From the IMG/VR virus record IMGVR_UViG_3300037067_026753: DNA of 64,000 nucleotides; one strand, written 5' to 3'. The translations under genes and the position numbers were made by a program. Shown here piece after piece: positions 49,809-50,949 of the stretch. The stretch is from a virus. The stretch's first letter is position 1, and each line of letters opens with the position of its first letter. Under the pieces are notes generated by a model that was not told the DNA's origin, did no database searches, and saw only the letters and a list, made by a program, of their open reading frames with translations.

Positions 49809-50437
49809 GTACTTTCAAACATGAAGAACTATATCGGGAAAAAGTATTATTCGAAATGATGTCAAAATTTTCTATTACTATGTGTGGTGCTGGAGCTATA
49901 GGTTCTAATCTTGTCGATAATTTGATCCGTCAAGGCTTCAAAAAAATTTCCGTAATAGATTTTGACAGAGTTGAAGATGGAAATAGACATACACAAATAT
50001 GGAGCTCAAGAGAGATTGGACAGCTTAAAGTAACAGCATTAAGAAATAGAATGTTTGAAGTTCTCAATACGCAAATTACTGCAATTTCTAAAAAACTTGA
50101 TAAATCAAATCTTAATCTTATAGAGCCTTCAAGTTTAGTTATTGATGGCTTTGACAATGTACCAAGTAGAAAATTGATAACAGAATATTGTAAAGAAAAT
50201 AACATTGATTGTTTGCATATTGGTTTGTTCCAAGATTATGCTGAAATAATCTGGAACGAAAAATACAGAGTGCCTGATGAAGTAACTAATATGGATATAT
50301 GTGAATATCCTTTAGCAAGGAATATAATTTTGTTGGCTATTGCTGTAGCGACAGAGATATTAATAGCATATTTAGAAACAGGTGAAAAGCGTAATTTCGT
50401 GATAACTTTAAAAGACTTCAAAATTTCGAGAATATAA
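49805..50437 (+). CDS. E1-like ThiF/MoeB-family adenylyltransferase (CGAGAIGS, DFDRVE)
   Basis: Rossmann GxGxxG plus conserved DxD. Confidence 0.7.
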   Translation: MSTFKHEELYREKVLFEMMSKFSITMCGAGAIGSNLVDNLIRQGFKKISVIDFDRVEDGNRHTQIWSSREIGQLKVTALRNRMFEVLNTQITAISKKLDKSNLNLIEPSSLVIDGFDNVPSRKLITEYCKENNIDCLHIGLFQDYAEIIWNEKYRVPDEVTNMDICEYPLARNIILLAIAVATEILIAYLETGEKRNFVITLKDFKISRI

Positions 50438-50949
50438 TGGATATTTGGTTCAATATGTTGATCGGTATTCCCGGTTCTGGGAAATCTACTTGGCTAAACA
50501 TACAACCTCGAAAAACTTATGTTGTCTGTCCTGATTCAATACGATTATATTTAACTGGTGATATTTCAAATCATAGTCAAGAAGAGACTGTTTGGAATAT
50601 TGCAAAATACACAACACGTTGGGCTTTAGTAAATAATATTTCAATAACATTTGATGCAACTAACACAAGTACATTTTTAAGAAGAGACTTTCTTGGGGCT
50701 CTTCCTCTTCAAGTATCGGATTTTAAACGCAAAGCAATTCTTTTTCCTACAGACCCAAATGTGGCTGTTTCAAGAGTTAATGCTAGAACATTTGGCTCAA
50801 AAGTTCCACCAGAAAAAATATTTCAATCACATCTATTGTTTCAGCAAACTTTGAAAGATATTTTAGATGAAGATTGGGACTGTATAGAAACGATAGGAGA
50901 CTCAAATGGCGGAAAAACTGTTAAAATCCCGGAAAGTGTCAGGACCTGA
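50437..50949 (+). CDS. pnk: polynucleotide 5'-kinase, T4 Pnk kinase-domain-like, no phosphatase domain (GIPGSGKSTW, DATN)
   Basis: P-loop and overall similarity to T4 Pnk N-terminal domain. Confidence 0.7.
   Translation: MDIWFNMLIGIPGSGKSTWLNIQPRKTYVVCPDSIRLYLTGDISNHSQEETVWNIAKYTTRWALVNNISITFDATNTSTFLRRDFLGALPLQVSDFKRKAILFPTDPNVAVSRVNARTFGSKVPPEKIFQSHLLFQQTLKDILDEDWDCIETIGDSNGGKTVKIPESVRT

Follow-up and report, generated by a model that had tools for sequence, protein, structure and literature searches.

Predicted end-repair genes of a huge phage: a stand-alone polynucleotide kinase, two RNA ligases and a split LigD-type cluster that probably form separate modules

The DNA analysed in this study, which we call the window, is a 64,000-nucleotide stretch of the virus record IMGVR_UViG_3300037067_026753. 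Its genes of interest encode a small predicted polynucleotide kinase (50437-50949, + strand), a LigD-type 3′-phosphoesterase (PE) fused to a Pol-beta-type nucleotidyltransferase (NTase; 13102-14814, − strand), an HNH-Rnl ATP-dependent RNA ligase (39367-40374, + strand) and RtcB (59786-62179, + strand). An initial annotation, made from the sequence alone, had combined the four into a single dispersed kit for healing and sealing broken tRNA. The four open reading frames (ORFs) are where that annotation placed them and its domain calls are sound, the matches being far above the chance level in domain scans of those window ORFs that are 100 aa or longer. The interpretation as a whole is partly supported: two RNA-sealing enzymes, a predicted polynucleotide 5′-kinase and 13 tRNA genes are present, but the PE-NTase as a healer of RNA and the single pathway did not hold up. 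Jumbo phages commonly carry genes of this kind, and the four lie 9-25 kb from one another, on both strands and in separate gene runs or transcription units; their co-occurrence in the window is therefore by itself uninformative.

The 170-aa product of 50437-50949 is, by its motifs and fold, predicted to be a genuine polynucleotide 5′-OH kinase of the Pnkp / HD-Pnk / T4 Pnk family, as had been proposed. Its P-loop GIPGSGKST (residues 10-18, consensus GxxGxGK[ST]) is invariant in a 10-member family alignment, and the likewise invariant D33-S-I-R36 pairs with RDDFR of Pnkp1 in a phmmer alignment. We take D33 and R36 to correspond to D35 and R38 of the T4 enzyme, the general-base Asp and the phosphate-binding Arg. 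The fold is nearer to the solved polynucleotide kinases than to small-molecule kinases, and the closest structures are those of the RNA-repair kinases CthPnkp and Pnkp1. Fold and catalytic motifs are thus shared with the kinase domain of C. thermocellum Pnkp, with C. gingivalis Pnkp1 and with T4 Pnk; HD-Pnk of the Runella type is a further enzyme for comparison. Unlike the bifunctional Pnkp enzymes, the window protein consists of the kinase domain only, and its activity is a prediction.

A different identity for this protein has to be considered, namely that it phosphorylates a small molecule or a protein tied to E1 or PARP chemistry, such as nicotinamide riboside, ADP-ribose or a ubiquitin-like (Ubl) protein. 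The kinase gene is flanked by genes for an E1-like protein and for a PARP, which consumes NAD+, a nicotinate/nicotinamide mononucleotide (NaMN/NMN) adenylyltransferase is also phage-encoded, the AAA_33 family is broad and sequence matches to polynucleotide kinases have modest E-values. A nicotinamide riboside kinase or other small-molecule kinase is nevertheless disfavoured by the motifs and the fold, and we regard this explanation as very unlikely.

The ORF holds the kinase domain alone, with no fused HAD, calcineurin-like or HD phosphoesterase, and there is no second kinase or fused kinase form in the window. The best PHROG match aligns the protein with the C-terminal half of a 343-residue profile, which fits the C-terminal kinase domain of a longer protein such as the HD-AAA_33 protein of the phage LR756500.1. 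About 60% of 160 more distant kinase relatives on viral and metagenomic contigs are stand-alone ORFs, so a Pnk without its phosphatase is common. The domain partitioning that had been singled out as unusual is therefore not so for the kinase; less expected is the PE-NTase fusion, with no match in 50,697 deposited phage records. A megablast search of deposited phages with the kinase region gave no match, and IMG/VR, scanned with single-sequence patterns of the kinase and of the PE-NTase, likewise yielded none.

The initial annotation had grouped the kinase with the ligases; its conserved neighbours are instead a ThiF/E1-like adenylyltransferase (49805-50437, +; ThiF 3e-24) and a WGR-PARP (50906-52318, +). 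The gene lies within a tightly packed + strand run at 46592-55702, downstream of a strong terminator with a 12-bp stem (46315-46346, +) that separates this run from a pair of isolated tRNA genes. No strong + strand terminator was found inside the run, and the count of promoter-like sites in the kinase region was not above that in shuffled sequence. The ThiF stop overlaps the kinase start, and the 3′-most 44 nt of the kinase gene overlap the start of the PARP gene. Wherever the gene context could be read, all relatives whose kinase is 46-78% identical carry its gene immediately 5′ of PARP. In one of them (L006) ThiF is 2 kb off, yet the kinase-PARP spacing is 34 nt; the position of ThiF 5′ of the kinase is otherwise conserved within the clade.

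The 470-aa PARP has the WGR, regulatory and catalytic layout (Pfam WGR 4e-8, PARP_reg 1e-9, PARP 8e-28) and belongs to a family with more than 1,600 matches, many of them on contigs longer than 400 kb. The H348/Y383/E451 triad is invariant in 21 sequences. PARP2 and PARP3 of eukaryotes are activated by 5′-phosphorylated breaks and work alongside PNKP in single-strand-break repair. The window protein resembles them in its layout, in its H-Y-E triad and in the phosphate-reading elements of its WGR domain, and it too is associated with a polynucleotide kinase, here through an adjacent gene. When its WGR domain is aligned to those of PARP3 and PARP2, the elements NNNK, (W->Y)GR and K-Y are retained; in PARP2 the corresponding elements include residues that coordinate the 5′-phosphate and relay activation (PMC8190142). 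The reading residues being largely retained, the phage PARP may read 5′-phosphorylated breaks, which is the ground for proposing that its ligand is produced by the kinase. Unlike PARP2 and PARP3, the window PARP is phage-encoded, has the W->Y change in its WGR motif and is accompanied by no XRCC1-like scaffold, and its coupling to the kinase is putative; unlike eukaryotic PNKP, the kinase has neither a phosphatase nor an FHA domain.

The second protein of the proposed kit, the 570-aa PE-NTase, consists of the PE domain (residues ~13-175), a divergent minimal Pol-beta NTase, a helical hairpin and a tail of ~50 aa. All six PE active-site residues are present (H21, H27, D29, R31, H96 and Y100), and the domain matches LigD_N (1e-21), the archaeal PE 3p43 (2e-22) and TIGR02777 (6e-28). 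In the NTase the motif G286-S287 ... D298-V-D300 is invariant and S-D-x-x-Y-D (362-367) nearly so, which gives the pattern by which the Pol-beta superfamily was recognised: hG[GS]-x9-13-Dh[DE]h with a third acidic residue on the core beta-sheet. The core, modelled with pLDDT >90, resembles the MNT-type minimal NTases. No feature of this domain points to the addition of CCA or A that had been suggested earlier. Similarity extends only to minimal NTases, and an identity as CCA-adding enzyme or poly(A) polymerase was rejected since the PolyA_pol head and the neck/body RNA-binding domains of those enzymes are missing.

Gene context places the fusion with DNA repair. An ATP-dependent DNA ligase and a LigD-type AEP primase-polymerase (Prim-Pol) lie just upstream of the PE-NTase gene and co-directional with it in five of five PE-bearing loci examined: the window and four relatives with 31-38% identity (L016, L017, L018 and L034), in the last of which the three genes are contiguous. 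The Prim-Pol of the window (15318-16175, −) carries DID at 116-118 and GFH at 160. The DNA ligase (18889-20079, −) has adenylation and OB domains with K63 in KIDG, EGIVV and KSK, its best PDB matches are archaeal DNA ligases and translation probably begins at Met18 (nt 20028). On its downstream side the PE-NTase gene directly adjoins that of a cpYpsA/SLOG protein (12101-13033, −), followed by a uracil-DNA glycosylase (UDG)-superfamily gene (11428-12111, −). An NTase-only relative (L033), which is without the ligase and the Prim-Pol, keeps the cpYpsA neighbour (9538-10461, 66% identity). Some 30 metagenomic proteins carry the PE-NTase fusion, at 31-58% identity.

Because the conserved neighbours are the DNA ligase and the LigD Prim-Pol, we assign the PE-NTase to a split LigD, and this context suggests a Ku-less LigD-type module for the repair of DNA ends or gaps. 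The same neighbours, in the window and in the four relatives, speak against its having been cast as a healer of RNA 3′ ends. Compared with bacterial LigD, the archaeal stand-alone PE and LigC/Prim-PolC, the window is predicted to encode all three LigD activities, with intact catalytic residues and in a conserved co-directional cluster. It differs from LigD, in which ligase, polymerase and PE form one polypeptide, in that its domains are on separate proteins, no Ku is seen in the window or the related loci, the cluster is phage-borne and the PE carries an additional minimal Pol-beta NTase that is not known from LigD. The nearest functional analogue is the excision repair carried out by LigC and Prim-PolC (PMC5663958). 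Documented PE activities are the removal of 3′-phosphates and the trimming of 3′-ribonucleotide tracts on DNA primer strands; the PE literature searched makes no mention of a cyclic-phosphate activity. The PE-NTase may thus trim 3′-phosphates or 3′-ribonucleotide tracts at DNA breaks or gaps before sealing, with the NTase possibly adding nucleotides. By analogy, the joining of a PE to a nucleotide-adding domain would mirror the interplay of POL and PE in LigD, where one adds ribonucleotides and the other trims them.

With the kinase-PARP pair and the LigD-type cluster in one window, one could also envisage a eukaryote-like DNA strand-break response in which the kinase works mainly on DNA. It would phosphorylate 5′-OH DNA termini, the WGR-PARP would then be activated, the split LigD (PE, Prim-Pol and DNA ligase) would process and seal the break, and RNA repair would be left to RtcB and Rnl alone. 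The adjacency of kinase and PARP, down to the 44-nt gene overlap, is consistent with this, as is the presence of a full Lig/Pol/PE set and a UDG in the same window, and LigC/Prim-PolC offers a precedent for Ku-independent excision repair (PMC5663958). However, the closest structural relatives of the kinase, CthPnkp and Pnkp1, are RNA-repair kinases, an HD-fused member of the family abuts an RNA ligase in LR756500.1, 35 kb and opposite strands separate the kinase and PARP genes from the LigD cluster, and the kinase-PARP pairing is clade-specific. We therefore consider a kinase dedicated mainly to DNA rather unlikely.

The RNA-sealing genes are of types already described. RtcB is encoded as a 797-aa precursor (Pfam RtcB 1.5e-54) interrupted by a 358-aa class-1 intein (60005-61078, +; Cys1 ... 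His-Asn / Cys+1; Intein_splicing 6e-14), which the initial annotation did not mention. The intein endonuclease is of the HNH type (phrog_21964 HNH), not LAGLIDADG, and the insertion is directly before the metal-binding Cys of DIGCG. Joining the exteins in silico yields a 439-aa protein that retains all catalytic motifs (MPDTH, DIGCG, GGNHF, HTGSR and PHGAGR) and can be aligned to the T. thermophilus and P. horikoshii RtcBs, which bears out the RtcB call. Two genes 5′ of RtcB, on the same strand, is a NADAR domain protein (59143-59592, +; NADAR 3e-39), and NADAR has been associated with RNA-repair systems (PMC9503650).

The 335-aa product of 39367-40374 joins an HNH endonuclease to the adenylyltransferase domain of an Rnl2-type ATP-dependent RNA ligase, and profile searches back its ligase motifs (PF09414 1e-26; phrog_24030 'RNA ligase' 1.5e-110 over the full length). 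These are K165-M-D-G, G213-E-N and E290-G-Y-V, with a K-rich motif V region at 304-314. The adenylyltransferase domain runs to residue 335, without the C-terminal nick-sealing domain of T4 Rnl2, and the extra domain is the N-terminal HNH. Proteins with 44-50% identity over the full length are encoded by Salicola SCTP-2, Ralstonia RsoM2USA, Caulobacter CcrBL9, Acinetobacter ME3 and uncultured huge phages. The 13 tRNA genes form an array of 11 (35364-37781, −) and a pair at 45689-46094 (+), one member of which is called as tRNA-Asn with the unusual anticodon ATT.

By the established biochemistry of RtcB, a 5′-kinase or a 3′-phosphatase would destroy its substrates, and for this reason RtcB and Rnl are better seen as two alternative routes than as successive steps. 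RtcB itself directly ligates 3′-phosphate or 2′,3′-cyclic phosphate ends to 5′-OH ends (PMC7824862), so that a pathway in which every one of the four proteins is required does not follow. In the scheme of the initial annotation, directed against anticodon nucleases, the PE would open 2′,3′-cyclic phosphates and remove RNA 3′-phosphates, the NTase would restore CCA or A, the kinase would supply the 5′-phosphate and Rnl or RtcB would seal. Some observations are in keeping with it: the kinase, Rnl and RtcB are authentic, 13 tRNA genes are close by, the gene after the PE-NTase encodes an RRM protein in two of the related loci, and Pol-beta NTases such as RlaP are common in RNA-repair systems (PMC7824862). 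CkoPE, whose solved structure is closely related to the PE domain, favours single-stranded substrates (PMC3258152). Weighed against the redundancy of healing for RtcB and the DNA-repair neighbours of the PE-NTase, these points leave one tRNA heal-and-seal kit quite improbable.

Jumbo phages are known to pair tRNA arrays with RtcB and Rnl1/Rnl2 ligases, including HNH-Rnl2 fusions, and with polynucleotide kinases and phosphoesterases (PMC7824862, Iyer et al. 2021). The window shares with that repertoire its RtcB, HNH-Rnl2-type ligase, PNK-family kinase, NADAR protein and many tRNAs, and since the repertoire has been described (PMC7824862), the RNA-repair part of the window is already of known type. 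The window departs from it in that no phosphatase is fused to the kinase, whose gene is part of a ThiF-kinase-PARP block, in that RtcB is interrupted by an HNH intein and in that no confident 3′-end-healing partner was identified in the window.

A link between the kinase family and the HNH-Rnl ligase is seen in LR756500.1, an uncultured 462 kb phage unrelated to the clade of the window. In its locus 15000-42000 (L027), at locus coordinates 5908-15875 on the minus strand, a co-directional cluster has the order PARP, R2K ATP-grasp, AAA ATPase, HNH-Rnl, HD-kinase, DFP and an MVP/SPFH homologue. The HNH-Rnl is 40% identical to that of the window, and the HD-fused kinase that abuts it matches the family hidden Markov model (HMM) at 2e-18. 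This single case ties the kinase family to HNH-Rnl, the classical heal-and-seal pairing, and puts a PARP within an RNA-repair-like cluster. The vault homologue has the MVP shoulder / Vault repeat / SPFH composition, and its company with a PARP recalls the eukaryotic vault particle.

The window can be read as part of a huge (tailed) phage because of a 424 kb contig, its IMG/VR relatives, its tRNAs and its gene content. The kinase protein is encoded identically on that contig and on a 74 kb contig (JAQUND010000007.1) of GCA_028717785.1, whose label 'Candidatus Nanoarchaeia archaeon' is probably a binning artefact. PARP relatives occur on IMG/VR viral contigs of 119-543 kb. The window has a G+C content of 33% and also encodes ribonucleotide reductase, dUTPase and an M15 peptidase.

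Our preferred explanation, to which we give a probability of roughly 0.6, is that this huge phage has three independent end-repair modules and not one dispersed pathway. In the first, RtcB, matured by protein splicing and with NADAR upstream, would directly join the 2′,3′-cyclic phosphate or 3′-phosphate of cleaved tRNA to the 5′-OH, and no healing enzymes would be needed. In the second, the HNH-Rnl2-type ligase would require a 5′-phosphate and a 3′-OH, the former of which the stand-alone kinase could supply. The third would be the split LigD, with separate DNA ligase, Prim-Pol and PE beside the UDG. We infer two uses for the 5′-phosphate made by the kinase, as a substrate end for the phage ATP-dependent ligases and as the ligand of the PARP WGR domain; the kinase-PARP pair would then first make a 5′-phosphate and afterwards sense the same group. 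What the analysis establishes are the domain identities and the conservation of active sites and gene neighbourhoods, from which the choice of RNA or DNA as substrate, the coupling of kinase and PARP and the activity of the NTase are deduced.

Several observations count against this explanation. The kinase-PARP pairing is limited to one clade with broad synteny and may for that reason be inherited rather than functional. A kinase was not found, by tblastn or with the family HMM, at nine more distant PARP loci (L021-L026, with 40-55% PARP identity, and Klebsiella FBKp34, XacN1 and Cellulophaga phi17:2), and 0 of the 160 more distant kinase loci have a PARP within 6 kb. The kinase and Rnl genes of the window are 10 kb apart in separate transcription units, and a kinase is near HNH-Rnl in only 1-2 of six other HNH-Rnl loci, the five neighbourhoods beyond LR756500.1, all in other jumbo phages, giving at most one weak kinase match. 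No 2′,3′-cyclic phosphodiesterase or 3′-phosphatase for the Rnl route was confidently identified among the scanned window ORFs, and Macro/PARG, Hen1, 2H and HAD phosphatase had no match there. The weak candidates for this step are the PE domain and a small metallophosphoesterase related to Aquifex aq_1665 (24252-24731, −; PDB 1xm7 7e-9, Metallophos_2 under the Pfam cutoff), a possible 3′-end healer. Neither the scanned window ORFs nor the genes listed for the related PE-NTase loci L016-L018 include a Ku match, so classical Ku-dependent non-homologous end joining is not demonstrated.

A tRNA-repair kit in jumbo phages is already textbook knowledge, and the novelty of the RNA-repair claim is accordingly modest; the PE-NTase cluster and the kinase-PARP pairing are more novel. 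The recurrent PE-NTase fusion in a split, Ku-less LigD cluster of uncultured huge phages would extend LigD-type end processing to viruses, and may be a compact system for coupling nucleotide addition to 3′ trimming. A polynucleotide kinase beside a WGR-PARP would offer a directly testable prokaryotic-virus model of 5′-phosphate-dependent PARP activation, and the LR756500.1 cluster hints that phage PARPs may serve nucleic-acid end repair and not only host-protein modification. A bolder proposal, which we hold to be speculative and on balance improbable, is that huge phages in the clade of the window have a strand-break response of their own, self-contained and resembling that of eukaryotes, in which the kinase-made 5′-phosphate is read by the WGR-PARP and ADP-ribosylation, possibly coupled to the E1/JAB genes, directs the RNA ligases or the Ku-less split LigD. 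If true, the PARP-HNH-Rnl-HD-Pnk-MVP cluster of LR756500.1 would suggest a phage-borne counterpart of PARP-associated end repair, perhaps with a vault/vPARP association.

Other genes of the kinase run deserve mention. A weak JAB-like ORF (49030-49443, +; Prok-JAB 6e-4, under the Pfam cutoff) is conserved in synteny, and a 78-aa ORF (49572-49808, +) lies between it and ThiF; these two and ThiF could together make up a Ubl-conjugation set upstream of the kinase. Among the neighbours of PARP, a 195-aa ORF with no family match (52328-52915, +) is the most widely conserved, being found downstream of PARP in L022-L026 even without the kinase and ThiF. The run opens with a 544-aa ORF (46592-48226, +) that has a weak match to PHROG 850 'RNA-binding protein' (5.6e-4, residues 340-489). 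A Ro/TROVE protein with Y RNA was considered for this ORF and the adjacent tRNA-like genes and was rejected, as it found no support in Pfam at E<=10, in PDB or in Rfam.

Minor observations concern the surroundings of the other genes. The ~50-aa C-terminal tail of the PE-NTase (13102-13260, −; residues ~520-570, KCPKKD...RWCLY...LGRHPSKEKALQQERVVQIHKH) is present only in the closest relatives and is modelled as a small beta/alpha unit. In another huge phage (L023) a cpYpsA/SLOG homologue (2536-3420) lies ~2.5 kb from a PARP. The NAD+ synthesis enzyme of the window, a MazG pyrophosphohydrolase fused to the NaMN/NMN adenylyltransferase (34056-35000, −), shares the window with the NAD+-consuming PARP, the NADAR protein and the SLOG protein. 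A DUF6527 ('BubE') protein (40371-40757, −) adjoins HNH-Rnl, and an unannotated ORF of L018 detected by tblastn (6657-6983) encodes another between the DNA ligase and the Prim-Pol homologue. Near the tRNA array, at 30888-32380 (−) and 37767-38573 (−), are GIY-YIG domain, DUF932 and HNH_3-like ORFs, probably mobile endonuclease genes. Finally, a receiver-domain and HD-GYP phosphodiesterase, which could degrade cyclic (di)nucleotide signals, is encoded beside a 1225-aa TPR-repeat protein at 40754-45474 (−), an unusual pair for a phage.

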